Assembly (NCBI GenBank): GCA_038924245.1
Contig: JBCKVB010000004.1
Span: 1-57,141, forward strand
Source: Gammaproteobacteria bacterium
GTDB lineage: Bacteria > Pseudomonadota > Gammaproteobacteria > SURF-13
Direction of reading: 5' to 3'
Length of the DNA stretch: 57,141 nucleotides
Positions 38,148-57,141 of the stretch are shown here, piece after piece. Position 1 is the stretch's first letter. Every line of letters begins with the position of its first letter. The notes below the pieces were generated by a model, which searched no databases, was not told where the DNA came from, and saw only the letters and a program-made list of their open reading frames with translations. A program made the translations under genes and the position numbers.

Positions 38148-38223
<76 letters not shown>

Positions 38224-39704: not shown

Positions 39705-39806
39705 GACGACTATGCAGATGAAAAGCGCGAGGCGTGGAACAAGCTAGGCGATAGACTGGAAGCGATTCTTGGCGCATCCAATGTTGTCAGCTTGAAAAGT
39801 GCTTAA
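39705..39806 (+). pseudogene. C-terminal tail of a second integrase
   Basis: DDYADEKREAWNKLGDRLEAIL...NVVSL resembles an integrase end. Confidence 0.5.
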
Positions 39807-39877
39807 CCGCACCGCACACCTCGCCGAACGCCGCCTTAATTGCCTTGGGATTCTTCAGGGTAAAGCGGCCGCACATC

Positions 39878-40510
39878 TCAATTCACCTTTGGCAGGTCTT
39901 CCCAGCGGGTCGTGTATGCCGGGGACATGTGATCGCGCTTCATCTGCCACGACTTCTTCGCCCCCTCGACGGCCAGCCTGAGCGTGCCGCGACCCCACCT
40001 GGCATTGGCCCGGTCCATTACCTGCATGAGAGCAGGCCGGCCCGGGCTGGTTGTGCCGAACAACACGCCCTGTGTTTGGCCGGCGGAGTGCAAGTCCATC
40101 AGCATCACCCCAGCCTTCTGGTAGGCAAAGCCTGGCCGGTAGATGCGCTTCAGCCCCCATAGTGCTGCACGAGTCAGTCTCACCGTGTCGCTGGTGGCCT
40201 GGGTGAGCGGCACGGTGATCGCCTGCTGATACTGAGGATGGTTTTCGTTGAAGGGATTGGTGCGGATGAACACCTGGACAGCTTCGGCCACCGATCCCTG
40301 GCGACGCAGCTTTTCGGCGGCGCGGGCCAGGTAGGTAGATACCGCCTCATCCAGTTCGGGCAGGGTGTGGATGCAGGCGCCAAAGGAACGAGAGGACATG
40401 ATCTGCTTTTTAGCAGGTGCCAGCTCTTCCAACTCAAGGCAGGAGAACCCGCGCAGTTCCAGCACTGTGCGTTCGAGCACTACCGAGAACTCGCGGCGAA
40501 GCGGACAGCG
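39878..40510 (-). pseudogene. umuC: 5'-truncated UmuC (Pol V) C-terminal half
   Basis: FSVVLERTVLELRG, KKQIMSSRSFG, YQKAGVML, WQMKRDHMSPAYTTRW; the catalytic N-terminus is absent. Confidence 0.88.
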
Positions 40511-40520
40511 CGCTTTTTGC

Positions 40521-40549
40521 GCTGCGCATAATCCGGCGTTATGTTCCAT
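40521..40549 (+). other. dif-like Xer/tyrosine-recombinase site
   Basis: GCTGCGCATAA-TCCGGCG-TTATGTTCCAT vs E. coli dif GGTGCGCATAA-N6-TTATGTTAAAT. Confidence 0.55.
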
Positions 40550-41086
40550 TGCCGAATACCGAACATGGTTGGGCAGGTAGCACCGAACGGCGAACGAAGT
40601 CTGGAACATACGCGGGCGGGAAAGCGTAGCGCCGTGCGGGGACGCGGCAGGCTGAGCGAAGCTGAGCCTACCGCTGGACTCGCGCAAGCGGCAACGAAGG
40701 GGGCCATGCTTGCCGAAGCTGCTGAGGGCATTGCGGAGGTGGCGAAGGCCGTCACTTTGCCGTAGCCGCCGGAGCATTGCCCGGTGCGTCAGATTGGCAC
40801 TGCACTAGCCCGGCGCGATGTTTGCGCATTTGCTTTATGCAAGCAGCGTGACGGGGGGTAAGATGGGCTGTTACTAGTGGAATAGTGAGGAGGGGGGTGT
40901 TCTTGGTATTTTTTATTGGATCCGTAAGTTCTGAACTCATACACCTTTTGAAAATTCTCGCAATTCCTAAGTTCATAATTATTTTTTTCCAAAAAAAATA
41001 TTAGAAATTTCCCTATTCCGCGATTGAATTACTATGGAGCTCAGACTCCATTGATTTTGAGGGGCGACCGGGGGTCAAGATCAATT

Positions 41087-41983
41087 CTAATTGCAATTGA
41101 GCGCTTTGCGCCAACCTGCGGTTTGAGCATCCGTCTCCGAACAGAACCAGCGCTCGCCATGGCCTCTATCAATCTTTGTCTTCTCGTACCAACCGCACCC
41201 CGGAAGATGATATATTTTCTCGCCTGACGAACTAATATTGCCCTTGATCAAACAGCCGGCAAACCCCTGCTCGGCGGGTTTGGTCGGGGAGGGCATGGCG
41301 GACTGAGGTGTGGGAAGCGCACTTGGGGCGGCTACCGGGCGAAACCTTTCACTCTGCCAGACGATTAACATTACGAGCCCGAATATAAGTGCGGTAAATG
41401 ATGCGACGGTGTACTTCATGACGGATGTGTCCTTGATGAGATGCTCAATGGTTTCCTTAAATGATGCGACGGTGTACTTTATGGCGGCATTGTCCTTGAT
41501 GAGCTGCCCAATGGCTTCCACTTGTGCTTTAGTCAGTGCGTCCAGTCGTTTTTTTTCTTCGGCGCTCAGTTCCTTGTTCGATCGGTTGCTCCTTGATCGC
41601 TTGAGCAGCAGACTGATGTGCTCAGCACAGTGTTGAGGGTTGTCTCTGACATCAGTGTTGGCAAAGCGCAATACATACCAGCCTTGCGAGGTCAGTGCAG
41701 ACTGTCGGCGCTGCCAGTCAATAAATTCACTATGGGACATTCCCATGCCCGTGCCGCGTTTGTCATAGCCGTCAATTTCTATCGCGATGCGAACATCGTC
41801 ATTTTCCAGGATAACAAAATCACAATATCGCTGTTTTTTATCCATATCCTGAAACGGATATTGAACTGCAATCGAGTCCAAGCTGAGCGCTGCAACAAGC
41901 GGCAACACATTTTCTGCAAACAAGATTTCATAATCACTGCCAAATTTTGGCCTGTTTGTCTCCAACCATTCATTAAGGTTCAT
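41087..41983 (-). CDS. DUF559-like endonuclease + TM + C-terminal CxIKGN nuclease-associated domain
   Basis: DFVI...AIEIDG...GWYVLRF; TM ALIFGLVMLIVW; CLIKGNISSSGEKIYHLPGC...ERWFCSE. Confidence 0.7.
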   Translation of the reverse strand: MNLNEWLETNRPKFGSDYEILFAENVLPLVAALSLDSIAVQYPFQDMDKKQRYCDFVILENDDVRIAIEIDGYDKRGTGMGMSHSEFIDWQRRQSALTSQGWYVLRFANTDVRDNPQHCAEHISLLLKRSRSNRSNKELSAEEKKRLDALTKAQVEAIGQLIKDNAAIKYTVASFKETIEHLIKDTSVMKYTVASFTALIFGLVMLIVWQSERFRPVAAPSALPTPQSAMPSPTKPAEQGFAGCLIKGNISSSGEKIYHLPGCGWYEKTKIDRGHGERWFCSETDAQTAGWRKALNCN

Positions 41984-42037
41984 TCAAGTTAATCCATCGG
42001 AAATATAAATTTGAATCACTTTAATCTGCTTTCTATG

Positions 42038-42403
42038 TCACTCATTCATTAAACGCAGAAACTGAGGATTTTTGATTATTATCTGTAGACTGCTTTTATA
42101 TTGAGTAATTTTCCCACGTGCGCATGCACGTCTATTTTCAAATACTTTAAGACTGCCAAATCTATCTAAAAAATCACTTTCTTGATCATTCCAAATGGTC
42201 ACGCTGATGTGCTGCTTCGGATATTTAGCACCGAAATTTAAATATGTTCCATTTTTGAAATCAGTAACTTCTTTTATTGAACCACAAACCATTACTGTTT
42301 CTCCCACATGAAAAGCAGCTTTGCTAGAGTCAATCGTGGATTCCGCAGAAATTGCCAAGCATGAAGCCCCCACCAATAAGAAGAAGAATGCTATTTTTCT
42401 CAT
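42038..42403 (-). CDS. Secreted small OB-fold-like protein
   Basis: Signal peptide MRKIAFFFLLVGA; HVGETVMVCG, YLNFGAKYP pattern. Confidence 0.6.
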   Translation of the reverse strand: MRKIAFFFLLVGASCLAISAESTIDSSKAAFHVGETVMVCGSIKEVTDFKNGTYLNFGAKYPKQHISVTIWNDQESDFLDRFGSLKVFENRRACARGKITQYKSSLQIIIKNPQFLRLMNE

Positions 42404-42404
42404 T

Positions 42405-43403
42405 TTAAACCTCGCGGATTGAAATTCGAAGTGCAAAAACCCATGTCGGTTTGGTGTAACGCACCGACTTCGTAAAGAATACCTCAAACGGCGTTCTGAA
42501 CCCCGGCACTTTTCTGGGGCGATGGTTCAGGCGGCGCACTGCTCGCGGCACCTGTTTCTCTGTCATGTCAGTCAACTCCATACTCTTGTGGATATACTGC
42601 ACCATGACCTTTGGGAGTAAAAACGTGCCGCCACCAAGGTAGCGCATATCCGGTAGAAAATCTATCCCTGTCCGTTGCACCAATTCCTTGTAGCCAATTG
42701 GCTTCCCTGCTCTGGCCTCATCTGTGTTGTCTAGCCAGTGCGCCCATGCACGGCGGCTAGAAGGGTCATAGACCAGCTTAAACAAGTGCTGTGGCACCCA
42801 GACCTTGCCAGCGCCGATTGTCGCTGGATTGGCAGCATACACCGGGCCGGTTATCACATACACATCACCCGCAGCACGCATTACATATTTGCGCGTGTCA
42901 TTCTCGATCTTTGCCCATGTCTTGCGGTTATTGATTGGAGCCTGTGGAACAATGTTGGCTAATGAGAAACTCTGTGCCATTGCCTCGTCAGTTCCCATGT
43001 CAGCAGCGGGCGCCATGTGTCCTCGGTCAAAGCCAGAACCCTTGTAATCATCAAGCGTTGCACGTTCTGCCCTGGGTAATCGTGCCTCTTCGTAGAAGTG
43101 GTCACCACGATCAATATCCTTTTCGATAATCGCTCTATTCAATCGTTCAGAGACGTAGATGGGGGTGCGACTTTTACCTGAGTGAAGTATTGCAAACGCC
43201 TCGAAGCATAGCGCCCTTGGCTGCATGTCTTGTTGGCGTTGAATTACCGGGGGCTTGCCATTCGCAAAGTGCTGTCGGCATTGGGCGAAATCATTCCCTT
43301 CCGCGTAGGCCATGTCGGCCACCGGAAGAAAAACAATAAATGCCAATACAACGATGGCAGCTTTGTTCAGGATTCTGCTAAGATCACATACCTTCATCAG
43401 CAA
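42405..43403 (-). CDS. DNA/RNA non-specific endonuclease (NucA/EndA family) with IS30-derived tail
   Basis: Signal peptide, DRGHMAPAAD, SFSLANIVPQ, NRKTW. Confidence 0.9.
   Translation of the reverse strand: MLMKVCDLSRILNKAAIVVLAFIVFLPVADMAYAEGNDFAQCRQHFANGKPPVIQRQQDMQPRALCFEAFAILHSGKSRTPIYVSERLNRAIIEKDIDRGDHFYEEARLPRAERATLDDYKGSGFDRGHMAPAADMGTDEAMAQSFSLANIVPQAPINNRKTWAKIENDTRKYVMRAAGDVYVITGPVYAANPATIGAGKVWVPQHLFKLVYDPSSRRAWAHWLDNTDEARAGKPIGYKELVQRTGIDFLPDMRYLGGGTFLLPKVMVQYIHKSMELTDMTEKQVPRAVRRLNHRPRKVPGFRTPFEVFFTKSVRYTKPTWVFALRISIREV
42417..42610 (-). mobile_element. IS30-family transposase 3' remnant
   Basis: QYIHKSMELTDMTEKQV...LNHRPRKVPGFRTPFEVF...FALRI. Confidence 0.75.
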
Positions 43404-43411
43404 AGACTACC

Positions 43412-43690
43412 ATGACAGACCTTTCGGCTTTTGCACAATACAACAAGCTTGCCGATATGCTCATCGCTCAAGCATCCAAAGACCAGATTGCAGAGTGTGC
43501 AAGGCTGCTTGCCCTCAATGTTGCCCACTACCAAATGAAGTATGGCGATTTGCCGTTAGAGGAGACACTCGCCATGGTTGACGCCGACGAGCCAAATGAC
43601 AACCAAGCTGTGTTGCTTGCTCACGGCATGGAGAACTTGGTTGGCGTGCTTGGCGCGGTATGCAGTGGGCTGGGAGAGGCGAAGCATTAG
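43412..43690 (+). CDS. Hypothetical protein (92 aa, helical)
   Basis: Clean ORF with plausible codon usage; no family recognised. Confidence 0.6.
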   Translation: MTDLSAFAQYNKLADMLIAQASKDQIAECARLLALNVAHYQMKYGDLPLEETLAMVDADEPNDNQAVLLAHGMENLVGVLGAVCSGLGEAKH

Positions 43691-43938
43691 ATAATCAAAG
43701 GCGCAGAATGTCCCGAATCTGTTGCCTATGCCATTTCATAATCAAACCGCAGCAAATTCCAAAAAAGATATTTTCTATGAGGCCACTCCAGAACTCGGGG
43801 ATCGGGCTCGTCCAACAACCAGTTTAGATCGTGGCTTCGCACGATCTAAACTTATTCGCTGGGCGGATTACTTCCCTTTATTTGTGATCCAGATTCAAGA
43901 TGAAAATAGGCTTCCACTTGCCACCGAAAAAGCTTCGG

Positions 43939-46047
43939 TTACACCTTTCTGAACCCTTCATCCTCGCAAGCCTGCTTTATTTCCAGAAGCTTCCGCCAGT
44001 CTTTTTCCGTGTTTATTTTCATGAAACCGGAGAGGGTGCTGGCCCTGATTAGCAAATTGCGTTCTGGCGATGATATATAGTTTGAAGCTTTTGGCCACCT
44101 GAGTAATGCCTCAAAATATCCGCTAGTCGAAAGTTGTAGAATGGTTTTCTGAAGGGCGATTCCATCATCCAGCCCCCCCTGCTTCCGCCCATCTGACTTC
44201 ACTCTCCTGAAATCGTCCTTGCTTACCATCCACTGATCGAGCTTCTTGGATAATGTAATTGGGATCTGCTTAATTTTGTCCCAGCAGGGCTCTTTCTTCG
44301 ACCACTCTCCTACATTCGTCATGCCCGCAGGCGGGTTGAGAATGACATTCTGCACGGCAATTGCAAGATCCCTCATACAGTCTTCTATTGCACTTTCAAC
44401 ATCCTGTTTCATCCATATCTGATCGAGGTCGAATTCCATTTCTTTCAAGCGGAAAGAGTGGAAGAGCAACGACAGGGAATACGTAACAATCTGAGGTCTG
44501 TAATCCCCTCCGTACCAAGTTCCTCGTCCAGCAGATACGATTCTCTCCGTCCGTTTCCACAAAATAGCCACCGCAACGATCTGCTGGTAGTAGGCATCTC
44601 CGTAATTTGGGCTAATCGAGTTCCAGTATTCGCTTTCAGTCACCTCCGGTTTAGCGCTGGAAAACTGCGCCGCAAACTTGGCGAAGTTCTTTTGGGCAGC
44701 GAGACTCACCCAATGAGGTTTTTCGCGCCAAGTACTATCATATTTTGCAAGTTCGGTTTTGTTGATGACCTGATCACTCGGGTACTCCAGATCAAAGGCG
44801 TTTTTCTTCGATTCCGTAAGGTACAAGCGCTCGTTCTGAAACTGGCCACGAGCGCGCTCGTAAAACCATTTGCTCTGAATTCTTGTTCCAGCTCGTGCTG
44901 GCACCTGAAGGCGCCGTGAAATCTCCTCGATCTTTCGATGGAACTGGTGGTTCGCAAAGAAATCAGCCGCTGCGATCTTGTTCTGCGTATTTGCAAACTG
45001 GGCAATCCTAGGTATCAGATCATGAGCATCATCACGACTTACCTCCGTCAGCTTCACCTGAACGGATACTCCTTCCAGCGACAGACGATCCTTCTTGCGG
45101 GCATTGAGAATACTTGCGGTCGTCTGGCCCCCATTGACGATCTGTAGATCAACCAGGTCGGTGATAAGATTCCTGCCATCAACAATCTCGACGGTCACGC
45201 TTGAAGCTGTTGCAGCAATCCCGTTGTTGTAGGCAAAAAAAAGTGACGGAGCATCCTGTATGGTTGTACGAATACCCTTGTTAATTCCCCCCCTCATCCC
45301 AAGAAAGGAACGGACGTTACCCTCAAGCAGTCTGCTACCATAACGCTCGAAAAGATCTGCAAGCAATGCCCCCTCAATAACACACAGGAAGGATCTCAGC
45401 TTGTCCGTCCGAGCAGCTTCTATGCACGGAATACCATCTGAACCGAAGTCCGACAGCCTGATTTCTACAGTCTCGCGTTCACGGGAAGACTCATACATGG
45501 CCTTCAACCGCTGTAAATCCCAGACATGCCTCTCGATTGGAATTCCGGCGATATTTCCGCACAATTCCTCCTTGAATTTCTGACTCAGGAGCTGGTTCGA
45601 AAAGATGTGCATGCGGATACGGGACACCTTGGTGCCGAGTTCACGCAAAAGGCTCGCCAGTTCGTAGGCAGGATTCGCCTCGGTGATTCGTTCATTCAGC
45701 CCCCCCTCGACGGACTCAACAATAAAATTTTCCAGCCACCCGGAAAGTTGATTTACCGTTGCCGTTGTCAGAGTTTCCGGATCCTCCGTATCAGTCCATT
45801 TCCCAATGACCAGACCTATCGTCCCGTCAGATTCATCCAGTTCAGTGAACCCATGAATCCTAAGCTGCCTGCTTCTGGCGCCCGTTCCAGAATATTCCAC
45901 TTGAACAAATTCTCCGAACACGGGATCCTCTTCGAGACGCTCGGCAACCTCAGCCACAAAGGCCATTGTATCGACGAGATTCATCGAGGCAGCTCGCCTG
46001 ATGACGATTTGCCTAAGTTCTTCCATGAATGCCTTGTCATCCATCAT
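43939..46047 (-). CDS. AIPR family protein (MzaD-like)
   Basis: LLEGNVRSFLG, FFAYNNGI, QIVNGGQTTAS, ANTQN. Confidence 0.92.
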   Translation of the reverse strand: MMDDKAFMEELRQIVIRRAASMNLVDTMAFVAEVAERLEEDPVFGEFVQVEYSGTGARSRQLRIHGFTELDESDGTIGLVIGKWTDTEDPETLTTATVNQLSGWLENFIVESVEGGLNERITEANPAYELASLLRELGTKVSRIRMHIFSNQLLSQKFKEELCGNIAGIPIERHVWDLQRLKAMYESSRERETVEIRLSDFGSDGIPCIEAARTDKLRSFLCVIEGALLADLFERYGSRLLEGNVRSFLGMRGGINKGIRTTIQDAPSLFFAYNNGIAATASSVTVEIVDGRNLITDLVDLQIVNGGQTTASILNARKKDRLSLEGVSVQVKLTEVSRDDAHDLIPRIAQFANTQNKIAAADFFANHQFHRKIEEISRRLQVPARAGTRIQSKWFYERARGQFQNERLYLTESKKNAFDLEYPSDQVINKTELAKYDSTWREKPHWVSLAAQKNFAKFAAQFSSAKPEVTESEYWNSISPNYGDAYYQQIVAVAILWKRTERIVSAGRGTWYGGDYRPQIVTYSLSLLFHSFRLKEMEFDLDQIWMKQDVESAIEDCMRDLAIAVQNVILNPPAGMTNVGEWSKKEPCWDKIKQIPITLSKKLDQWMVSKDDFRRVKSDGRKQGGLDDGIALQKTILQLSTSGYFEALLRWPKASNYISSPERNLLIRASTLSGFMKINTEKDWRKLLEIKQACEDEGFRKV

Positions 46048-46048
46048 A

Positions 46049-47014
46049 TCAGTCTGTTAATTCCTTGTGTCCTTCAATGGATTCCAGCGAAATTGCATAA
46101 TTTGCACTGACTATCCCCTGAGAGACTGTGTCGGCCGAAATCTTCGGGAAAGCCTCGTCTACACTATAGGAATACTGTGCAACTGCTTCAAAGAGTATCG
46201 TGTCATAGAATTCGTGTTCGACATAGAATGCTTCAAGCAGACGATCATTAAACACCCTTAACGCCTCCGGGTTGGAAGCAATTGCCCCCTCGATTCTCGC
46301 CACTAGCGAATTTATGGTGACAGCCACCGCTTCTTCGGGTGTCGCCTCCCTGAGCACCATGACGACGAGACTCATCGGTACCGCACAATCAAGTTGTCCC
46401 AATGAAGAGATCGTTACGCAGTCCGCTCCAAGCCTTATGGCCTTCACTTCGATTGCGCTGTCTGAAAACAGGAAATCCTGATCAGCACCCAAGGGTCCTA
46501 CCCAGCCGACAACCGTTTCAAGGTAATCTCTCTTCCCGGATCCGATCAACGACTCCAGAACAAGTAGCTCTGCAATCAGTCCCTTGATCTGGTGAACCTG
46601 CAAAAGTCCGTTTCCTCCATCCTGAAAAAGCCTTTTCCACAGATTCAGCCGTTCCTTGAACAGAGCGATCAATGCCTCCTCTCCTGCAACATTACTTGAG
46701 GCATCAACCAGATCTTGGCAAAGGCGGCCGAATACAGCTTCAAGCCCTCTCTGCCTCAGTCTCAATACCATCAGCCATGACCCGTCTTGTCGCTGCTGTC
46801 TGAAATAGTCCAGCGAAGATGACTCCATGGCAATGTTCGGAGGCCTAACGTGAATGCCGATCGCAAGGAGCACGAAAGGTGAGGCATCAACACCTGCATA
46901 GATGTCGAAACGAGTCTCCGGATCTATCCTGGTCAGACGAAATCCATTTTCCTCTATCGGACGACTCCCAATCTGACGAAGTGATTCAGCCCAAAGCACC
47001 TCAATCTTCGTCAT
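46049..47014 (-). CDS. DUF4420 PD-(D/E)XK protein (MzaC-like)
   Basis: KGLIAEL, WVGPLGADQDF, AIEVKA. Confidence 0.88.
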   Translation of the reverse strand: MTKIEVLWAESLRQIGSRPIEENGFRLTRIDPETRFDIYAGVDASPFVLLAIGIHVRPPNIAMESSSLDYFRQQRQDGSWLMVLRLRQRGLEAVFGRLCQDLVDASSNVAGEEALIALFKERLNLWKRLFQDGGNGLLQVHQIKGLIAELLVLESLIGSGKRDYLETVVGWVGPLGADQDFLFSDSAIEVKAIRLGADCVTISSLGQLDCAVPMSLVVMVLREATPEEAVAVTINSLVARIEGAIASNPEALRVFNDRLLEAFYVEHEFYDTILFEAVAQYSYSVDEAFPKISADTVSQGIVSANYAISLESIEGHKELTD

Positions 47015-49745
47015 CGTCTTCCTGATCCGGGATCATTCCCATGGTGCGCAGTGCAACATTGTTGAACCGGTAAGGCACAGGGGCCGATTCTGTGTCGCCA
47101 AAATTTGGAAACGACAGGCTGACAGCCACCAGTGCCTTGGGTTCGATTTCGCTGGCCATCATCATGCGGCCTAAACGTTTGGCATCTTGCTTGGCATCTC
47201 GCTTTGGATTTGGTTTTGGATCACACGGCTCGATGACGTGAATGGTGAGCAAAGGTCTCTTCCGATATCGCCTGTAGACGTAACCTGGCACGGTACTGCC
47301 CTTTTCTGGATCTCGCTTTCTTTCTTCTTCCCACTCCAATTTTGCCGCTTCGATGTCTGGTTTCTCGATATCCACAGTCTCGTCGCCGATCTCGCCAACG
47401 CGCTGCTTGTTGAGTTTCAGGTAGTCCGCCCCCTTAGGAACTTTTTCAAATTGCCGTTGCCGCGCACGAATATTGCGGACGACACCATCCAAGCTTTTAA
47501 TGCTGAGATCTCGCAGCTCATCCCCGTCCCCTTGCGGCAAACAGATGTCCCATTCATCAAGCAATTTGACATCATTCCGCCCGATGAAGGAAAGAATAGG
47601 ACGCTCATTTCCCGATATGTCCAGCATAAACTCCATGTTCATGTTCGAAATCTCGAGCCTCCGAAGAAAGTCTGCCACTTCTGTTGCCTTAACGCCTCTC
47701 CAGTAACATCTGTTTCCGATCATATTTGCCGGGCCCCGACCAGAAAGGAACTGACTGACGTATGCCAAGTTTTTATTATTAGGCTCGACTTCCCTCGGAA
47801 GGAGCGCTGTTTCCGCACCACATTCGCTGAATGAGACCGCAACCTCGATTTGTTGCGAGTTTCTCATCTTGTTAAGCGCTGTGACGGTCAAGGCATTAGG
47901 GTGAGACCTGACACGCATTCCAAATTTGACGGGAGGTTGTTTGTTCGCATGCATTCTTCTAATGTCCAGACGCAGTTCACCAACTACGTCAGCAATATGA
48001 GCAAACCAGTCCTGCACGTCCGGATCCATCCATACCCTGCAAAGATCTTCATAGCCTGGACGATATCCAAACCAGCGCCCCATCTGAAGCAGGGTGTCAT
48101 ATGCTTTGGAATTCCGGAAGAAATAGCTGACACACAATCCTTCCAACGTCAGGCCGCGTGAAAGGGTTAGACCACCCACCGCAACGATACGCCTACCCTT
48201 TTCAGAGTTCTTGTAGAGTCCATAATTCAACCGGTCAGCCGCATCGCTCTTCTGGTTGATTGTCACGACCTTGACTGATGCAACCGAGTCGAACAAATTC
48301 CTTCTCACCTGATCCCAGCTGAATCCACACTCTGCATAGTGCTCTGCCCAGATTGCATACAGCCTAGAGAGGCGCGCATGACCGTCCCAGAGCTCATCGT
48401 CCGCCAGATATTGCTTTATGTCTTCCGTAAGGACGTAAAGGTAGCTCTTGATGACTGCTGCAAGCCGACCCTGCACATCCGTGAAGCGAGTAGCATTCAC
48501 CAGCATAGATCGATGCCTCATAGGCTCCTTCCTGAGATCACGAATCGCGCAAGATAGAAGGAAGGCACTCAAGGCTTCCTCCAACGAAGGTGGTAGCGTC
48601 GTAATGAGCAGATCCTTCTTGTGTTTGTCCGGGAAAACGCTGTCGGCATCGTTGATGTCGACCAGTTGGTACTGATGGCGCCCCGATTCGGAAAATATGC
48701 CAGATACACCAATGTAATTGGTTGGAGTGTTCAGGCAATAGACGAAATTCGACGGGAACAGATCATCGTTGTCCGGGTTGATAAAGACGTTTGCAAATGG
48801 GGTTGCCGTATAGGCAGCATAGGTCGACTTTCCAAAGCGGTTGAGAATCTCCCGTATAAGCTTGTTGATCTTCGCCGGATCCTCATCCTTTTTTGCATTG
48901 ACGGAAGCATTGTCAGCCTCGTCGTCAATCAGCAACAGAGGCAAGTCAATCTGATTGGCCCCCTTCCTCATCTGGGAATCAAGAAAGGCAATCAGGTTTG
49001 CAAGAGGCGAGTGATTTTTTTTCATCACGAGCAAGACCGGCTCGTTGATGTTTTCCAGTGGAATGCCTCCCAGCGCACGCTTGTTCGCCATCAGAAAATC
49101 AGAGTCGATCGATGTTAGGACATTTGGGATGGAAAGACGGAATCGCCCTGCGCCGATGACCGTTTTTTGGCGCTCATAATCGAGAAGGTCACGGCTATCC
49201 CGCCCGACAAAACCCTCGTCAAGCCGCTCCTGAGTCTGTGCCCGCAACACCTCAATCATGCCTGTAAGCAGGACAATAAACTTGTACCCAGCATCGGCTG
49301 CCTTGTTGATCAATCCGCAATAGCTCGCCGTTTTGCCGGACTGCACGTCACCCATGACTAGCCCTTTCACCTTCCATCCGTGAGTCAACTGCGGATTCCC
49401 GCACTCGTTCAGGATGTTGTCTGTATCTTCATCCAGGACACGAACGACTTCCCGCCCAAACCCGCTCGACTTGAGCTGGTTCACATAAGCATCCCAGTAG
49501 TTCCACTTGATTGTTGCCTTTACCTCCTCGAGCCACGGCTGCTGGTCGCCACCATGCAGCCCTTCCCCAGACATCATGCTAACGCCTATTGATGACTCAA
49601 GCTGTTTCCGAACCCTGTCGAGGGTGCCGGCATCAATTCCAGGGGTGATCTTCGATAGCATACCGATGACCTCATTAAGGAGTTCATCCGTCAACTCCTG
49701 TGTTCCGATGATTCCGACGGCAATCAGAAATGGGTCACTTTTCAT
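47001..49745 (-). CDS. Z1-domain SF2-helicase-like protein (MzaB-like)
   Basis: GDVQSGKT, IDDEADNAS, SRGLTLEGL, DTLLQMGRWFGYR. Confidence 0.92.
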   Translation of the reverse strand: MKSDPFLIAVGIIGTQELTDELLNEVIGMLSKITPGIDAGTLDRVRKQLESSIGVSMMSGEGLHGGDQQPWLEEVKATIKWNYWDAYVNQLKSSGFGREVVRVLDEDTDNILNECGNPQLTHGWKVKGLVMGDVQSGKTASYCGLINKAADAGYKFIVLLTGMIEVLRAQTQERLDEGFVGRDSRDLLDYERQKTVIGAGRFRLSIPNVLTSIDSDFLMANKRALGGIPLENINEPVLLVMKKNHSPLANLIAFLDSQMRKGANQIDLPLLLIDDEADNASVNAKKDEDPAKINKLIREILNRFGKSTYAAYTATPFANVFINPDNDDLFPSNFVYCLNTPTNYIGVSGIFSESGRHQYQLVDINDADSVFPDKHKKDLLITTLPPSLEEALSAFLLSCAIRDLRKEPMRHRSMLVNATRFTDVQGRLAAVIKSYLYVLTEDIKQYLADDELWDGHARLSRLYAIWAEHYAECGFSWDQVRRNLFDSVASVKVVTINQKSDAADRLNYGLYKNSEKGRRIVAVGGLTLSRGLTLEGLCVSYFFRNSKAYDTLLQMGRWFGYRPGYEDLCRVWMDPDVQDWFAHIADVVGELRLDIRRMHANKQPPVKFGMRVRSHPNALTVTALNKMRNSQQIEVAVSFSECGAETALLPREVEPNNKNLAYVSQFLSGRGPANMIGNRCYWRGVKATEVADFLRRLEISNMNMEFMLDISGNERPILSFIGRNDVKLLDEWDICLPQGDGDELRDLSIKSLDGVVRNIRARQRQFEKVPKGADYLKLNKQRVGEIGDETVDIEKPDIEAAKLEWEEERKRDPEKGSTVPGYVYRRYRKRPLLTIHVIEPCDPKPNPKRDAKQDAKRLGRMMMASEIEPKALVAVSLSFPNFGDTESAPVPYRFNNVALRTMGMIPDQEDDDED

Positions 49746-51211
49746 TTTGTTAGCTCCAAGCGTAGTTTTTCATGATGTTGCGGATGGCGAACGATGGGGT
49801 CGATGTTCAATACTTGATTAACACCAAGACCAGTTATCTCGAGAAGATTCGTTGCTATCTCAAGTAGCTCCGTGAATGTTTCCAATTCGTCTGCCCCTCT
49901 ATGATCTGAACACATGTCGGCGTAGATCGACTCAAACGGCAAAGTGTCTCCAAACATGCTCAACAACATCTGAAAATACCGTTGATTTTCCTCGCCGAAT
50001 TTAGACGAGAGTGACTGAATCACGGGGTGTTCCATGTTCAGCTCGTATCGGAATGAATCGCGCTTTGGCTCAATTCTTGACCAGAGTGGAACGAATCCAT
50101 TGTTCTTTTGCTTTCGTCCAGGATACGTCACCGTATTCCTGCTGGTGTTGGCAAAATGGGGAATGAGTTCCTTCAGTCGAGACCTGATCGATTCAGGCGG
50201 ATAAGCGACCGATTTCTTGATGTCCAAGGCCCACAGATCATCGAAGGAGTTTGGAATATCGACCTGTATTCTGGTCAGCTTGAAAAACTCATTCTTTGGC
50301 ACGAGCCTGAACCATGTGCCCCAGATAACAAGTCGACGATTGCGGTAGATGTAGAACCCCTGGGTTCCTCTAAGACCCTCCTTGCCCCCGGCCAGATTTA
50401 TTTCATCCAGAGACAGGTGACTGACAGGCGGCAGGATAAAAGGGCATACATTCACATTCCCTCTCTCATGCCTGATTACCTGCCCTTCTAAAGGCTGCCG
50501 GAAAGTGTTGTCTCTTAGAAAAGGGTCACGTGGAGGTATCTGCAATCCATTAGCTACGATCCTGATCGGACTGAATCCATCCTCCTTTTGCGTAAAGCGA
50601 TGAAAAACAAGGGCGAGGTGCTCGTACAGAGATGTCAGTTTCGTTGTCATTTCGGACTGAGGGTCGGCTGCACCAGCAGTGAGCCGATCAAGATCCTGCC
50701 AAACAACCAAGGTGCCAGAATCCAAACCTTGAAGGCGGGAAAACATGGGCAGGGATTCAAGATCCCTTTGTGCAGGGACGACCACCAGCCATCGTCCAGA
50801 CTCTAGTACGACATCGAGATCCCACCGCCTTGCACTGGTGACGCCCTCTTTCTTGCTCACTACTGTGAGCTTTCTACATTGGGACAAAGATGCCGTCTTC
50901 AAACCGAGGCCAAACCTGCCCAGATCTGAAACATCCCGTACATCGGTTGGATTACAGCTGCCATACCGCATGGCATTGGTCAACTCATTGGGAGCCATCC
51001 CCCAGCCGTTGTCCAGAATTGCAACAAAAGGATCTTCTGATGCGCCGTACTTAACTTCAATGCAATCTGCCGTTGCAGAGATACTGTTGTCAATTAAATC
51101 AGCAATTGCTGCCTCAGCTGTGTAGCCGACTGCTCGCATTGCCTCGATCAGGGAAATCGGATCAGGGATGACCTCCAATGTTTCCATTGCTTCCACGTTA
51201 GCCTCTAGCAT
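49742..51211 (-). CDS. MORC/MutL-type GHKL ATPase (MzaA-like)
   Basis: AIADLIDNSI, DNGWGM, GRFGLGLKTAS. Confidence 0.92.
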   Translation of the reverse strand: MLEANVEAMETLEVIPDPISLIEAMRAVGYTAEAAIADLIDNSISATADCIEVKYGASEDPFVAILDNGWGMAPNELTNAMRYGSCNPTDVRDVSDLGRFGLGLKTASLSQCRKLTVVSKKEGVTSARRWDLDVVLESGRWLVVVPAQRDLESLPMFSRLQGLDSGTLVVWQDLDRLTAGAADPQSEMTTKLTSLYEHLALVFHRFTQKEDGFSPIRIVANGLQIPPRDPFLRDNTFRQPLEGQVIRHERGNVNVCPFILPPVSHLSLDEINLAGGKEGLRGTQGFYIYRNRRLVIWGTWFRLVPKNEFFKLTRIQVDIPNSFDDLWALDIKKSVAYPPESIRSRLKELIPHFANTSRNTVTYPGRKQKNNGFVPLWSRIEPKRDSFRYELNMEHPVIQSLSSKFGEENQRYFQMLLSMFGDTLPFESIYADMCSDHRGADELETFTELLEIATNLLEITGLGVNQVLNIDPIVRHPQHHEKLRLELTK

Positions 51212-51280
51212 CCCTGTACTATCCTCCCTAACGGAATTTTCTTCAACATGACAAATTATCTATGCATATATAGGCCAACA

Positions 51281-51452
51281 CAGTAGTGTCCGGTTAATCT
51301 GAGACGAAGTTCGTGGAAAGCCTTTATTCATGCGGTTCTTCGACATTTTCAAGGTGATGCCGATTTTAGCTCACGCTTGAAATTCACGCCCAATTGAATT
51401 AGATGGTTGCGAGAAGAATCGGGCCTATTTTTTCGTCAACCGGACAGTAGTG
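51281..51452. mobile_element. 172-bp miniature element with IS4-type ends
   Basis: Ends CAGTAGTGTCCGGTTAA and TCAACCGGACAGTAGTG, same IR family as 19691-19945. Confidence 0.7.
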
Positions 51453-52785
51453 ATTCGCAATATGCTGTTACATCCACTAGATTTACATTCACATAGAGGC
51501 TATTCAGGCCTCTCAGCTTGACTCTGAACTGGCTACGCCTTTTTGTCGTCGGGCTGACATCGTTTATGCCCTCTAGCTTAATGCCGGGATCGTAGTACAC
51601 CATTTGTGACTCAATCGCTTTCAGCAAATACAAAGGGTCGGTGCCCTCACCTAGCCTTACTATATTTCCATAGGTATATTGGTTTTTCGGGTCTGTTCGG
51701 TGTTCGCTGGGAACATAAACTGCATTGCGGTGCTTGCGATTCCAGTGCTTCAGAATTCCGGTGAATGCCCAAAATGCAGCCAGCGTTCCATCATCAGATG
51801 ACATGGCTATCCCACCATCTGCATCAGTGATCTTCCCTGATAAACTGTCATACCCATGAAGCGTTATCGTCAGCCCCGTATTGGGATGTTTTTGGTTACA
51901 AAAATGGGCGCCACCGAAGTTCATTCTGTCAGCCCTGCCCAGACGATCCATGTACCCAAAGGTTCTTACGAACTCCTCCACACCTCGCTCAACGTAAAAA
52001 CCTCCGGTTGGCTCAGGGGTCATGAGGGTCAGCACATTGCTGCCATGCTGCTTCACTTCCCAGCCTTGGAAATCCGGCTCTGACCTTCCGTTTGGTGTAA
52101 TGCCCAACTCTGCTTCAAGAGTATACCCACCACACTGAGTGGCATTGCAGGGAAGAATGCTTCTCGTGGCATCAAGGCGCTTGGAGTTGATCCATCCCAG
52201 CCTGTGTATACGACATAACTCCGTAAGCAGAGCAGTTCGTGGATCACTTCCAACGCCCAGAAAAACCGAAGTAACAATCTCGGAGAAAATTTCTGTAGCT
52301 TTTACCAGCCCTGCGCTAATCCCCATAGCCTGTCGACAAACAGAACTCTCAGGCTCAAAAACAGAACCAATGATCCGCCCCTGATTATCTGTTCCTAGAA
52401 AGAGTATTCGACCAGGAATTCGGCTGTTCATGAGTGTTCGAGTTGAGTCTAGTCGAGACCTGTCACAGCCCCTGAGGAAACCTGAGAACCTGATTTCCGG
52501 ATACTGCGGATAGAGAATTATTTGTGCGGACGGTGCATTTACCAGCGAGGTGTCATCGCCAATCCAGCAGAAGTCGACCCCCGCCTTGAAAATTGGATTA
52601 TCCCCACTAGGGTCTGGATAAACGTCCCCAGTCGGAAAAAGCGTGAGAGCTTTGAAGCCTGGACCGAAGTAGACCTGATTCTTGGAGTTGTCGTTAGCCG
52701 CCAGGAATTTAATGTAAACCTTTTCTACGCGATGATCGGCGTAGTACTGAATCAGACTCTGAAGCGACTGAATGGAAGTGGACAA
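51436..52785 (-). CDS. MvaI/BcnI-family restriction endonuclease
   Basis: GYTLEAELGITPNGRSEPDFQGWEVK, LTLMTPEP; linked to vsr-dcm. Confidence 0.85.
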   Translation of the reverse strand: MSTSIQSLQSLIQYYADHRVEKVYIKFLAANDNSKNQVYFGPGFKALTLFPTGDVYPDPSGDNPIFKAGVDFCWIGDDTSLVNAPSAQIILYPQYPEIRFSGFLRGCDRSRLDSTRTLMNSRIPGRILFLGTDNQGRIIGSVFEPESSVCRQAMGISAGLVKATEIFSEIVTSVFLGVGSDPRTALLTELCRIHRLGWINSKRLDATRSILPCNATQCGGYTLEAELGITPNGRSEPDFQGWEVKQHGSNVLTLMTPEPTGGFYVERGVEEFVRTFGYMDRLGRADRMNFGGAHFCNQKHPNTGLTITLHGYDSLSGKITDADGGIAMSSDDGTLAAFWAFTGILKHWNRKHRNAVYVPSEHRTDPKNQYTYGNIVRLGEGTDPLYLLKAIESQMVYYDPGIKLEGINDVSPTTKRRSQFRVKLRGLNSLYVNVNLVDVTAYCESLLSG

Positions 52786-52830
52786 TTTGAACTCCTATTG
52801 GAAGCTTGACATGAATCACCTCAGCTACGA

Positions 52831-53250
52831 TCAGGTAGAGAGATTGCCTCTGATTTTGCCACACAGGCGGCTGATTAGCTTTGGATTGTCTTTTTCACAC
52901 TCCCATACAACAATACATTTCCAGCCCTGAGTCGCAAATGCCGCAAGAACTTTCCCATCGCGCTCAATGTTTCCCTGAAGTTTGTTTCTCCAGAAGTCCG
53001 TGTTGCTCTTGGGCATTACTGCATACTTGCAGCCTGGATGCTGATGCCAGAAGCAGCCATGGACGAAGATAGCTGTTCGATATTTTGGGAGAACAATGTC
53101 CGGCTTTCCCGGAAGGTCTTTGACGTGAAGTCGAAATCTAAAGCCCTTAGCATGTAGACCCTTCCGAACATGAAGTTCTGGCTTTGTGTTTTTGCTACGG
53201 ATACCGGACATCATCCGGCTACGCGTTGTCCGGTCAACGACATCAACCAT
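52831..53250 (-). CDS. vsr: Very-short-patch repair endonuclease
   Basis: RSRMMSGIRSKNTKPE, LPGKPDIV, FVHGCFWH, VWEC. Confidence 0.96.
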   Translation of the reverse strand: MVDVVDRTTRSRMMSGIRSKNTKPELHVRKGLHAKGFRFRLHVKDLPGKPDIVLPKYRTAIFVHGCFWHQHPGCKYAVMPKSNTDFWRNKLQGNIERDGKVLAAFATQGWKCIVVWECEKDNPKLISRLCGKIRGNLST

Positions 53251-53283
53251 CAGGCATCAAACTGTCCGAGAGCGGCAGTCTCC

Positions 53284-54561
53284 TTATGCATTTGCATAAC
53301 GAAGCGGTAACTCAGGCTCCAGGGTATCCGTTTCCAGCATAGGCTGCATCAACCTTGCAACATGAGACATAACATCAACAACAACAGAATTTCCAAATTG
53401 CTTGTAAGAGCGAGTATCCGAAACAGGGATTTTGAAATTATCCGGGAAGCCCATCAGTCGCGCGCATTCTCTGGGCGTCAATCTGCGCGGGCTTTTGCGC
53501 TTGCCTTGGTAGATAAGGATTTCCGAGCCGTCCTTGTAGTAGCGCGCTGAAAGCGTGCGGGCGGTATTTTCCGGGGTAACTAGGCCAAAGCCGAACCCGT
53601 TGCCCTTGGCGCGGTGCTTCGCGGCGTAATTCTGCAAGTAGAGCCAGAGGTGATCGGAGAGGGTGTATTTATTCTGCACACGCTGTTTTTTGTGGTCGAA
53701 GAATCTTCCTTCGTCCCATTCCAGAACAGGCTCTGAACCATCGGTGCGGTGCAAAATGTCCTTGAGCTTGCGCTTGTTCTTGGGTGGCAGGGGCAGGGCA
53801 TTGAAATCGAATGCAACCGGCTCGCGAAAACCGACGATGAGAATGCGTTCGCGGTGTTGTGGGACGAAGTGCGCACCGTCAATAATGCGCCAGTGAATGT
53901 GGTAACCCAACTCCTCGGTCAAGGTGCGGCGGATAACTTCGAAGGTGCGACCCTTGTCATGCGATTGCAGATTCTTCACATTTTCCAGCAGGAAAGCGCG
54001 TGGGCGCTTGGCTGCAATGATGCGTGCCACGTCGAAGAACAGCGTCCCTTGGGCTTCGCAGGCGAAGCCGTGCGCCTTGCCCAGCGCATTTTTCTTGGAC
54101 ACTCCGGCAATAGAAAAAGGTTGGCAGGGAAATCCGGCCAGCAATACGTCATGGTCGGGAATGTGGGCAGCATCTATCTGAGTGATGTCACCATGAATTG
54201 GATGGCCGTCGCGGAAATTTTCGGCATAGGTTTTCTGGGCATAGCTGTCCCACTCGCTGGTGAACACGCAACGCCCGCCGATGTTCTCGAACGCCTTGCG
54301 AATACCGCCGATGCCCGCAAACAGATCAATGAAATTGAAATTGCCCTCCTCGGTATTTTTCGTTCCGAACGGGAGCAGTTGCTGCAATGCGGGAACCAGA
54401 TAGGCGGGGGGCTGCGATTGCCTCACTTCCCATCGTCTGATGGTGCGGACGTTAATTCCCAAATGACGGGCAATTACAGCTTGTGTGTTGTGTTTACGTG
54501 CCTCGGCAAGGTAGGTAAATACAGCTTCCTGATCGTCGGCGGTGCTTAGGATGGTAATCAT
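53284..54561 (-). CDS. dcm: C5-cytosine DNA methyltransferase, Dcm/EcoRII/SsoII-like, with N-terminal HTH
   Basis: [35 protein letters not shown]; [22 protein letters not shown]. Confidence 0.93.
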
Positions 54562-54591
54562 GGGTGCTTTATTATCTGGGAGCTTTTGCGG

Positions 54592-54620
54592 ACAATATGG
54601 CATTTTATAGTCCCTGTCAA
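54592..54620 (-). promoter_or_regulatory. sigma70 promoter of the dcm operon
   Basis: TTGACA-N17-TATTGT, 30 nt before ATG 54561. Confidence 0.7.
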
Positions 54621-54986
54621 ATGACCAGGGCATATACCGCCCCCGCTGGCGTAGTCATCAGGAAATGCGAGAAATTGGACTGTCACCTTTTCTGCTGATC
54701 AGAGCCAAGGCTCCTCCCTCATTCCCATGCTTTTGCAGGAATCCTAACATTAAGGTAACCGTGAGCGTCTTTACGGGTGTAGTGCGCGGAATCGTCTTCG
54801 TAACAGAGACTCATAGGGTCAGACTCCATGGACACTCCCTTGATTACAAGGTATCGGAACTAGCTTAACAAGATTACCGTCCGCACCCGATGGTGCCCGG
54901 CAATGGTTACATTGTATCGGCGCTACTTGTAATGCGTTACATATGCGTTACAATATGTGGGTATCAGGTAGGTCCACGAGTGAAGC

Positions 54987-55712: not shown

Positions 55713-55742
55713 TTGACAAACTCATGCCTTGGGTAGTAGTCT
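55713..55742 (+). promoter_or_regulatory. sigma70 promoter feeding the riboswitch array
   Basis: TTGACA-N18-TAGTCT; predicted +1 near 55749, just before aptamer 1. Confidence 0.7.
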
Positions 55743-55750
55743 GTGTACGT

Positions 55751-55802
55751 AGCGCCGATTTGAGCTTCAGCTTGCGGGCGCTTTATAAATGCGGCTAAAG
55801 CG
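55751..55802 (+). ncRNA. SAM-II-type riboswitch aptamer 1
   Basis: P1 AGCGCC/GGCGCT, loop GATTTGA...TTGC, linker ATAAAT, 3' GCTAAAGCG. Confidence 0.8.
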
Positions 55803-55806
55803 GATC

Positions 55807-55843
55807 AAACCCGTTCTAGCGCGCAAGCCGGACCGGGTTTTTT
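55807..55843 (+). terminator. Intrinsic terminator after aptamer 1
   Basis: AAACCCG...CGGGTTT stem followed by T6. Confidence 0.7.
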
Positions 55844-55856
55844 GTTGTCTGTAGTG

Positions 55857-55909
55857 TCGCCGATTTAACGCACAACTTGCGGGGCGAATCATAAATACCG
55901 CTAAAGCGT
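55857..55909 (+). ncRNA. SAM-II-type riboswitch aptamer 2
   Basis: P1 TCGCC/GGCGA, GATTTAA, TTGCGG pairs with CCGC(T)AA, ACGC pairs with GCGT. Confidence 0.82.
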
Positions 55910-55971
55910 CGCTCGCTTCTCCTCCCCCTGGAAGCCGGCCACGCCGGAAACGCAGGGGAAAGGAGTTTCAC

Positions 55972-56259
55972 ATGTCAAAGCTTGAAGTTGGTGACATTTG
56001 TGTTACGCAAAACAATAGGATGAGTCTGCTCAACAACGGCCTGTTGGTAGAGATTATTGCGATCTGTTCGATCTCAGCTACCCCCTACCTAGTCCACCGC
56101 ATTGATGGGCACCGAGCCCCAGTGACGGAGCACCTTGGAGTTGTAAGTTTTTTCGCGTGTGACAATGCCTGGACGACAGCGCACCGGCTGCGCCGTGTTG
56201 ATCCCGGGGACACTCCCAGTTACGCGGAAGATGCTGAACGCTTGACCGAGCATGCCTGA
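55972..56259 (+). CDS. Small phage-like hypothetical protein ORF1
   Basis: AAGGAG SD; beta-rich N-terminus similar to ORF2. Confidence 0.75.
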
Positions 56260-56269
56260 TCGGAAGACC

Positions 56270-56423
56270 GGATGGGCATCGTCCACTTTTTGCTGATGTT
56301 GTTCAACGCCAGGTAAAACAGCTTGGTCACGGCTTCGTCGGTCGGAAACGAGGCGCGGGTTTTGATCACCTTGCGCAGACTCATGTTAATCGACTCGATG
56401 GCGTTGGTCGTATAGATTACCTT
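56270..56423 (-). mobile_element. IS256-family transposase internal fragment
   Basis: [40 protein letters not shown]. Confidence 0.85.
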
Positions 56424-56512
56424 AGTTAAACGTTTATGCGCGGTGAGGAAATAAACCGCGCAATGACATTGCAACGAGATGCACATGCATCGGAGTGGCC
56501 CACCTTACGGGC

Positions 56513-56571
56513 CGGGGGGATTTGATCCAGATTGCCGTCCCCGACGCATCGTCAAAACGGCTAAACAGGAG
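56513..56571 (+). ncRNA. SAM-II/SAM-V-type riboswitch aptamer 3 (translational)
   Basis: P1 CGGGGG/TCCCCG, GATTTGATCC, TTGCCG/CGGC(T)AA, TCC pairs with GGA of SD CAGGAG. Confidence 0.75.
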
Positions 56572-56578
56572 ACTAGCA

Positions 56579-56899
56579 ATGTCATTACTCAAACCTGGCA
56601 CACTCTGTGTCATCGTTGGTGGCTGCCCAGAAAATATTGGCCTCATCGTCGAAGTTCTTGCCCACCTCGGGCCACGCCCTCCCCGTGCTGACGCGTACAG
56701 CATACGAACCTCCAGTGGCCGGCCTTTTCCTCAGCTATGGGGCCTAGGCGGCCGCCTTGAACGCGGCTACACCAATGAGGCCATTACGGATCGGCACAAA
56801 CTTGCCCCCCTGGTTGATTCCAAGGATGAGTCCGAAGTGCGAAGCCGCGCCGTAAAGCGTGTGCCGGGCAGAAAGCGCGAACTGGAGACCTGCCACTAA
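56579..56899 (+). CDS. Small phage-like hypothetical protein ORF2 (paralogue of ORF1)
   Basis: MSLLKPGTLCVIVGGCPENIGLIVEV; SD AGGAG 7 nt upstream. Confidence 0.78.
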   Translation: MSLLKPGTLCVIVGGCPENIGLIVEVLAHLGPRPPRADAYSIRTSSGRPFPQLWGLGGRLERGYTNEAITDRHKLAPLVDSKDESEVRSRAVKRVPGRKRELETCH

Positions 56900-56982
56900 G
56901 TGACCCGGGGCAGCACCACCGGCCACTAACTTTTCAGAATATACGAATACGGCTTGATCCACCGCCCTCGCGGGGAACGGAT

Positions 56983-57039
56983 CGGGGGGATTTGATCCAG
57001 ATTGCCGCCCCGACACATCGTCAAACGGCTAAATAGGAG
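56983..57039 (+). ncRNA. SAM-II/SAM-V-type riboswitch aptamer 4 (translational)
   Basis: Near-copy of aptamer 3: CGGGG/CCCCG, TTGCCG/CGGC(T)AA, SD TAGGAG. Confidence 0.75.
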
Positions 57040-57045
57040 AACGAA

Positions 57046-57141
57046 ATGTCGTACACAAATGAAGAAGTAATTAGTGCACTTATCCCGCACCCCCGGGGGA
57101 TTCAGGCTCTTCGGGAGGCGCTGCGCATCCAGCCGGAGTAT
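57046..57141 (+). CDS. Hypothetical ORF3, truncated by window end
   Basis: MSYTNEEVISALIPHPRGIQALREALRIQPEY; SD 6 nt upstream. Confidence 0.65.
   Translation, partial: MSYTNEEVISALIPHPRGIQALREALRIQPEY

Follow-up and report, generated by a model that had tools for sequence, protein, structure and literature searches.

Two leaders of SAM-V architecture in a gammaproteobacterial contig belong to a mobile family of probable translational SAM riboswitches

The two leaders described here lie at the 3' end of contig JBCKVB010000004.1 (57 141 nt) of a SURF-13 gammaproteobacterium (GenBank assembly GCA_038924245.1). The window analysed is this entire contig (C4 of genome G000, an assembly of 1.38 Mb in 78 contigs that is 82.6% complete). 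The leaders are about 60 nt long and occupy positions 56514–56571 (copy 1) and 56984–57039 (copy 2) of the + strand. Judging from sequence comparisons, the element that they represent is very probably a translational OFF riboswitch of SAM-V architecture that senses S-adenosylmethionine (SAM). It belongs to a conserved family with compensatory changes in its helices and is found in front of accessory metK genes and many other gene families.

Architecture of the two leaders

The 24-mer GGGGGGATTTGATCCAGATTGCCG has exactly two matches in the window, both on the + strand, at 56514 and 56984 (mean of 0.00 in 100 shuffles), and a repeat search of the window pairs the two leaders with 91% identity across 35 nt. 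Over the aptamer and the Shine–Dalgarno (SD) sequence, 55 of 62 positions are identical (88.7%). Both leaders are closed by AGGAG (56567–56571 and 57035–57039), followed 6–7 nt later by an ATG, at 56579 and 57046. In each copy, UCC (56526–56528 and 56996–56998) faces the GGA within AGGAG (56568–56570 in copy 1), the linker holds a small hairpin (GACG-CAU-CGUC, 56543–56553, and GAC-ACAUC-GUC, 57012–57022) and a GC hairpin stands immediately 5' (56497–56513 and 56956–56983). A first-pass annotation of the sequence had described two look-alike leaders with these features, all of which were located.

P1 pairs a G run with a C run (56514–56518 with 56538–56542 in copy 1; 56984–56988 with 57008–57011 in copy 2). 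P2 pairs UUGCCG with CGGC(U)AA (56532–56537 with 56558–56564, bulged U56562; 57002–57007 with 57026–57032, bulged U57030), and GAUUUGA is the candidate third strand of a triplex (56519–56525; 56989–56995). The spacer between P1 and the 3' strand of P2 consists of a P3 hairpin of 3–4 bp and an A-tract, AAAA at 56554–56557 or AAA at 57023–57025.

At the Rfam gathering thresholds, the window yields two tRNAs only. In a permissive scan, both copies align along the whole SAM_V model (RF01826), with 33.3 bits (E 0.0045) for copy 2 and 21.4 bits for copy 1. Their SAM_alpha (SAM-II, RF00521) scores are 18.3 and 12.9 bits, and no other Rfam family was matched in the window. The motifs AUUUGA, AUUG, GC-U-AAA and AGGAG are in register with the Rfam alignments.

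The crystal structure of SAM-V (Huang & Lilley 2018, PMC6061858) has a P1 of 4 bp, a 3-nt turn and a 3-bp P3 stem-loop right after P1, a pairing reported there as general in SAM-V. Three stacked adenines are described as well; U47 bulges out and pairs with the ligand's adenine, and U:A.U triples recognise the SAM sulfonium. Turn nucleotides 14–15 form a 2-bp P2a with the SD, which produces the OFF state. When aligned to the Rfam consensus, both copies show every SAM-V element at equal spacing. The nucleotides U9, U10, U19, U20, bulged U47 and A48–A50 (metY numbering) are retained in both, as is the complementarity of C14/C15 to the SD; this mapping of contact bases is our own, made through the Rfam consensus with the numbering of PMC6061858. 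The linker hairpin, taken in the annotation for an extra feature of a subtype intermediate between SAM-II and SAM-V, is the canonical P3 of SAM-V (PMC6061858), and the element appears to have the SAM-V layout, not a form between the two classes. The proposal of a SAM-II/SAM-V-type pseudoknot occluding the ribosome-binding site is retained by analogy: UCC:GGA would correspond to P2a of SAM-V.

The sequences that defined SAM-V came from Pelagibacter and marine metagenomes (PMC2704228). The metY and bhmT leaders of 'Candidatus Pelagibacter ubique' share with the present element the H-type pseudoknot, a P1 of 4–5 bp, the triplex P2 with its bulged U, a 3-bp P3 right after P1 and the A-tract, and the G11–U19 spacing is identical; their P2a with the SD has a putative counterpart here. 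The present element differs in being GC-rich, in scoring 21–36 bits against a cut-off of 41 and in having a putative P2a of 3 bp (UCC:GGA) instead of 2 bp. It is found mainly in Betaproteobacteria, on mobile elements and often between cistrons, mostly before accessory metK and uncharacterised genes, whereas SAM-V is found in marine SAR11 before metY, bhmT and mmuM. SAM-II has the same superfamily fold and the same ligand-contact bases, but it lacks P3 and usually carries a stable, GC-rich P2a of 5 bp and a terminator, whereas the present copies have a P3, a putative 3-bp P2a over the SD and no terminator. A rare translational SAM-II of metX has a 2-bp P2a with the SD (PMC6061858).

Family, covariation and upstream hairpin

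The genome G000 holds four copies of the element, two in the window and one each on contigs C23 and C33, and these four alone show compensatory changes in P1, P2 and P3. A pattern scan of one genome per species, with fixed core words, gave at least 117 loci of two types: a short-linker class of SAM-II type, and a long-linker class of at least 82 that includes the present type. The matches listed are mostly from Betaproteobacteria (Hydrogenophaga, Rhodoferax, Limnohabitans, Ideonella, Accumulibacter, Nitrosomonas, Methylophilaceae and Caballeronia). In the copies with a callable open reading frame (ORF), the SD lies 2–3 nt past CUAAA and the ATG 4–9 nt past the SD. The GC content of the copies is 47–65%.

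A covariance model (R1) was built from the four G000 copies and run on 80 sources. It gave 94 matches, 89 of them distinct; copies 1 and 2 score 91.9 and 87.2 bits. In the 89 distinct copies, the P2 pair 28–81 is GC in 36, CG in 31, UG in 8, AU in 7 and UA in 7, and the P3 pair 39–68 is AU in 42, CG in 35, GC in 5, UA in 2 and UG in 1; neither is unpaired in any copy. Changes on both sides occur in four of the five P1 pairs and two of the six P2 pairs. Overall, 93.9% of the cells are paired, against 32–59% with the partners slid, and the observed values were reached by none of 500 shuffles; the alignment was fitted to the model, and the free tests are those of P1, the inner P2 pairs and P3 only. 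Each P2a pair has letters in 88 copies, and UCC:GGA complementarity is present in at least 84 of these. Compensatory changes thus support P1, P2 and P3. The annotation had put forward a covariance-model search of homologues as the check on its claim, and covariation was found.

The GC hairpin that the annotation had noted before each copy, here called P0, is a conserved element of the family. In copy 1, it is a 5-bp hairpin (GGCCC-ACCUUAC-GGGCC, 56497–56513, +) abutting P1; in copy 2, an outer stem GAUCC/GGAUC encloses an inner hairpin CCC-UCGC-GGG (56956–56983, +). Both are present in the minimum free energy (MFE) fold. Throughout the family, the helix ends exactly at the start of P1, and its stems vary (GGCCC/GGGCC, GGCUC/GAGCU, GAUCC/GGAUC, GUUCC/GGAAC and others), some with a nested inner hairpin. 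The extended type seen in copy 2 recurs in loci L029, L056, L108 and L130, and in L134 ahead of metK. A 4-bp complement is present upstream in 76 of 82 distinct copies, compared with 51.7 ± 3.8 (maximum 64) when the 3' strands are swapped, and a 5-bp complement in 58, compared with 31.3 ± 4.0. The SAM-V Rfam model and crystal construct contain no such helix. P0 would insulate the aptamer from upstream coding RNA or stack coaxially on P1. Insulation would let the aptamer fold independently, which suits its frequent position between cistrons.

The closest relatives of each window copy are found in other genomes, with 89–94% identity. The description of the pair as a duplicated cassette is therefore misleading: identity to foreign copies reaches 93.5%, against 88.7% between the two neighbours. 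Because each copy is closer to copies of other genomes and the 5' hairpins are of different sub-types, the two belong to a conserved family, were brought together along with their cargo and are not the products of a recent local duplication.

Proposed ligand, mode of action and alternatives

The element stands directly before two metK genes of G000 (on C23 and C33) and before metK in at least 11 other loci, including those of Nitrosomonas nitrosa and Caballeronia telluris. The metK behind it encodes a genuine SAM synthetase (TIGR01034, 558 bits). In all three genomes tested (G000, C. telluris and N. nitrosa), the controlled metK accompanies a native metK as a second copy, and the native gene lacks the element. 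G000, with a genome of about 1.4–1.7 Mb, encodes three full metK and a divergent MetK-like protein (C9:7570–8694, C33:1387–2556, C23:2662–3813 and C23:7305–8267). Relatives have a single metK, whose only orthologue among these is the C9 gene, which matches no Rfam family at E ≤ 0.05; the C33 and C23 genes are extra copies. The possibility that the element is the native metK leader of this lineage was rejected: it is absent from the three same-genus genomes searched and from all but one of the 19 other genomes of the family that were searched.

In 12 loci (11 fetched and C33 of G000), a SAM-I/IV riboswitch (52–71 bits) lies 80–600 nt upstream of the element. In L088, the order is a SAM-I/IV riboswitch (71 bits), a homologue of W106 (the 106-residue protein encoded behind copy 1), the present element, a 69-aa ORF and a MoxR ATPase. 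Locus L134 holds SAM-II, SAM-I/IV and two copies of the element inside 1.4 kb. SAM is the likely ligand because the SAM-V contact bases are kept, metK lies downstream and SAM-I/IV alternates with the element on the same gene families.

We infer the following mode of action. GAUUUGA would occupy the P2 major groove, where the resulting triplex would form the SAM pocket. When SAM is bound, the triplex would lock and UCC would pair with the GGA of AGGAG to form P2a, excluding the ribosome, so that the downstream cistron (the W106 gene or the gene behind copy 2) would stay untranslated; when SAM falls, P2a would open and translation would begin. The module would thereby gate accessory metK, an operon encoding MoxR, vWA (von Willebrand factor A) and MetK-like proteins, and uncharacterised genes, whose products would be made only when SAM is scarce.

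Several observations weigh against this reading. Neither copy reaches the gathering cut-off of SAM_V (41 bits) or of SAM_alpha (36 bits). None of the homologues in 18 loci reached 41 bits with SAM_V, and a further scan of 8 loci (6 among the 18) gave a sole homologue match at E ≤ 0.05, of 35.7 bits. Most genes behind the element are unconnected with methionine or SAM. P2a has no covariation in the 89-copy alignment, where UCC and GGA are invariant, as expected because the SD is constrained, and occlusion of the SD therefore rests on analogy with SAM-V. Core conservation among the homologues is partly by construction, since the search pattern fixed core words. The MFE folding z-scores (0.27 and −0.28) are not significant, which is expected because the fold is a pseudoknot, for which MFE is uninformative.

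The low Rfam scores, the extra P0 and the many downstream genes unrelated to methionine would also be compatible with a SAM-II/V look-alike that has switched to S-adenosylhomocysteine, methylthioadenosine, decarboxylated SAM or another sulfonium or adenosyl compound, and there is a precedent in SAM-I variants that sense spermidine (PMC10853860). This is nevertheless highly improbable: all SAM-contacting positions of SAM-V are kept, including those of the U:A.U triples and the bulged U that pairs with adenine, and the element precedes a bona fide metK and alternates with standard SAM-I/IV riboswitches. Nothing thus indicates the altered ligand specificity that the annotation had considered. The window copies could, alternatively, be inert relics carried along with rearranged island cargo, given that a transposase remnant, presumably of the IS256 family, lies directly upstream of the copy 1 leader, that copy 2 stands before a tetratricopeptide repeat (TPR) gene, in the place taken by metK in the close relative L134, and that genomes of the same genus are devoid of the element. 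We regard this as very unlikely, since both copies keep their helices, core nucleotides, SD and ATG spacing with no disabling substitution seen, and both are near the family consensus, with the 89–94% identity to foreign copies noted above. Several copies per locus and an association with mobile DNA could finally suggest a structured leader that senses no metabolite, such as the target of a protein or small RNA, or a repeat resembling repetitive extragenic palindromes or miniature inverted-repeat transposable elements. Such a repeat is hard to reconcile with a strand-specific element that lies on the coding strand and always has its 3' end at an SD and ATG. A single pseudoknot accounts for the covariation, in a layout identical to that of the crystallised SAM aptamer; inverted terminal repeats and target duplications are absent, and the copies do not cluster by genome. 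We therefore give this explanation almost no weight. A SAM-sensing OFF switch of translation remains the preferred reading.

Array, mobile setting and downstream genes

The two leaders are the last of an array of aptamers on the + strand. Aptamer 1 (55742–55845) is SAM-II-like (SAM_alpha 32.7 bits, cut-off 36; E 4e-5) and ends in an intrinsic terminator (about 55807–55845), with a hairpin plus a U-run in the fold. Aptamer 2 (about 55858–55912) has the SAM-II-like core GAUUUA...CUUGC...GCUAAAG and opens a region (55858–56259) that includes ORF W95 (55972–56259), which is distantly paralogous to W106 (E 0.002 across the N-terminal 30 aa). After aptamer 2, a long hairpin pairing CUCCU/CCCCUG with CAGGGG/AGGAG covers the SD. 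The W95 and W106 families are also adjacent in Sulfuritalea (L078). W95 is separated from copy 1 by a terminator-like hairpin and by the 3' end of a transposase gene (56267–56417, − strand, inside the minus-strand ORF 56220–56486), probably of the IS256 family. The leader upstream of copy 1 (56438–56491, +) contains the hairpins GCGCGGU...ACCGCGC (56438–56461) and GAUGC-ACAU-GCAUC (56478–56491). About 85 nt 5' of P0 of copy 1 align with the leader of the island metK on C23 and with the Methylophilaceae locus L041. This similarity ends near 56425, where the transposase remnant starts, and the remnant thus appears to mark a rearrangement breakpoint. The upstream leader may act as a promoter or operator or as an RNA structure.

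ORF W106 (106 aa, 56579–56899, +) starts 7 nt past the SD of copy 1. Copy 2 lies within the 84-nt spacer after W106, which contains no terminator, and the mRNA in which it acts is most likely polycistronic. The gene that copy 2 precedes (57046–57141, +) reads into TPR repeats and ends at the contig edge. Since the final 31 nt of C4 recur within the TPR gene at the start of C23, C4 probably continues into C23, and the TPR repeat probably broke the assembly between the two. C23 (locus L008) starts with the rest of the TPR gene (1–1815), followed by a 176-aa protein, the third copy of the element and metK. The TPR protein would exceed 600 aa, with many TPR_12/TPR_10 repeats; no other locus in the set has a TPR gene after this riboswitch. 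The operon that follows the riboswitch-controlled metK (L008, 4023–8366) encodes an AAA_5 MoxR-like ATPase (467 aa), a 155-aa protein, a DUF2201/VWA-like protein (469 aa) and the divergent MetK-like protein (357 aa; TIGR01034 163.7 bits, cut-off 309.4). It recurs in L134, L036, L088, L051 and others, and PADLOC gave no match for it.

Aptamers 1 and 2, together with the short-linker matches of the Hydrogenophaga type, are SAM-II-like relatives of the present element. These short-linker matches in Hydrogenophaga and others may correspond to the betaproteobacterial metXZ RNA element, a terminator/antiterminator leader present once per genome before metX or metZ (Leyn et al. 2014, PMC4239095). The same study gives no known regulator for betaproteobacterial metK. 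The present element resembles the metXZ element in being a methionine-related RNA leader of Betaproteobacteria, but it is translational, patchy and placed before accessory metK. Tandem arrangements of a SAM-II (terminator) and a SAM-V (translation) riboswitch were described by Poiata et al. (2009), in the account given by Sherlock et al. (2022, PMC9481103); doublets of SAM-II, and SAM-II with SAM-I/IV in either order, are also on record (PMC9481103). The G004 leader is similar, with a SAM-II-like aptamer, a terminator, a SAM-V-type element and then a 302-aa ORF, as is the window, with intervening ORFs. Unlike in the SAM-II/SAM-V tandem, each aptamer here would gate its own cistron, up to four aptamers of three classes lie within 1.4 kb (L134), the array is part of a mobile island and the genes under control are outside sulphur metabolism.

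More than 20 unrelated gene families stand behind the element, on islands and one plasmid, and the idea of a portable riboswitch–RBS (ribosome-binding site) module is borne out by L134, where the leader that stands before the TPR gene in the window precedes metK: the W106–metK spacer of L134 is nearly identical to the spacer between W106 and its neighbour in the window. L134, whose W106 is 92% identical, adjoins two tRNA genes. Its gene order begins with an integrase, AlpA and Prim-Pol/VapE, a layout that we take to be P4-type, followed by two unannotated ORFs. An unannotated ORF and an HD_4 gene come next on the opposite strand, with the SAM-II aptamer upstream of them on that strand, and then SAM-I/IV and DUF3293, the element and W106, the element and metK, and finally the MoxR, DUF2201-like and MetK-like genes. 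In the plasmid pPNAP04 of the cultured Polaromonas naphthalenivorans CJ2, a copy lies between a DUF3293 gene (NC_008760.1, 62500–62937), which precedes it, and a 75-aa ORF. DUF3293 recurs behind SAM-I/IV and directly before the SAM-V-type element in L009 (C33; 2653–3220) and L134 (9346–9910). Sulfuritalea contigs carry a W106 homologue without the switch beside the F-type conjugation genes TraN, TrbC and TraU. In a sample of Burkholderiales, the element is present in 10 of 301 genomes. The pattern scan of 2.9 million IMG/VR viral contigs gave no match, and a phage-borne origin is therefore unsupported.

In the window, a tRNA-Asn gene (38148–38223) and a tyrosine integrase gene (38292–39599) open an island of lower GC content (45–52%; 38148–54633). 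It carries genes for Dcm (with an N-terminal helix–turn–helix), Vsr, an MvaI/BcnI-type endonuclease and an HATPase_c_3 ATPase, and large ORFs (43939–49745). The riboswitch array begins about 1.1 kb past the Dcm gene. For the island genes, PADLOC gave only weak mad8 and Cas4-like matches and identified no known defence system. In the low-GC part of the island, two tandem repeats of 62–63 nt (41395–41519) are 87% identical. Elsewhere in G000, the short contig C49 (L010) carries a SAM-II-like aptamer (2241–2316, −; 27.8 bits), a near copy of aptamer 1 with a longer linker, before a 185-aa protein with a twin-arginine translocation (Tat)-like signal; an ORF of the same contig (6491–7621, −) resembles a P4-type primase by eye alone.

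Among the matches listed, the downstream genes include a family of 68–158 aa (16 loci), another family of small proteins (8 loci), a family with a Tat-like N-terminal signal as judged by reading the sequences (8 loci), a 'KPGDLAVIV...NIG' group apparently related to W106 (6 + 2 loci) and MazE-like antitoxins (3 loci). Of 150 non-redundant ORFs from the downstream runs, six match MetK, four AAA_5 (three also bpMoxR), three SNF2 and three HD_4 in Pfam at E ≤ 1e-4. HicA, HicB, HipA, PIN, ADP-ribosylglycohydrolase and TY-Chap are matched once each, and the other families are mostly single. Eight of ten representative downstream proteins have no Pfam family, and neither NCBIfam nor Pfam returned anything for W95, W106, Tat176 and p155. 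The 358 homologue clusters of W106 are all annotated as 'hypothetical'. Its structural model (predicted local distance difference test score of 81) has only weak matches (E ≥ 0.01), to KOW-type ribosomal proteins, YorP and CAP-Gly folds, and W106 is modelled as a small beta-barrel resembling SH3/KOW; these matches are generic, and no function can therefore be deduced. In uncultured gut Sutterella (L038, L048 and L106), a divergent element with a longer P3 (43–46 bits) stands before a MazE/PrlF-like antitoxin gene. A literature search found no paper linking SAM riboswitches to integrative conjugative elements, nor any on DUF3293.

One wider interpretation, which we consider speculative and rather unlikely, is that the island-borne arrays of SAM riboswitches of several classes detect SAM depletion and in response release mobile cargo cistron by cistron. 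If this were true, a phage SAM lyase or MetK inhibitor directed against neighbouring SAM-dependent restriction–modification and Mza-like systems might be what triggers them, and the de-repressed set would include a spare metK, the MoxR/vWA/MetK-like operon and small proteins such as W106, W95 and DUF3293. The riboswitch would then serve a defence or counter-defence island by sensing infection or stress and would not be a device of metabolic feedback.

Three features seem to be undescribed: the conserved P0 abutting P1, Rfam scores below the cut-offs of SAM-V and SAM-II, and a patchy, mobile, often intercistronic use before accessory metK and uncharacterised genes. SAM-V has so far been described as a marine, SAR11-type riboswitch of sulphur-metabolism genes, and the GC-rich lineage would widen this range; a covariance model made for it would pick up the elements missed by Rfam 15. 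The lineage neighbours genes for conjugation, satellite-type elements and transposition, and is used cistron by cistron. It would extend the known SAM-riboswitch regulon to second metK copies and mostly uncharacterised proteins, and dozens of uncharacterised gene families would thereby gain a handle: their products may be wanted only at low SAM.

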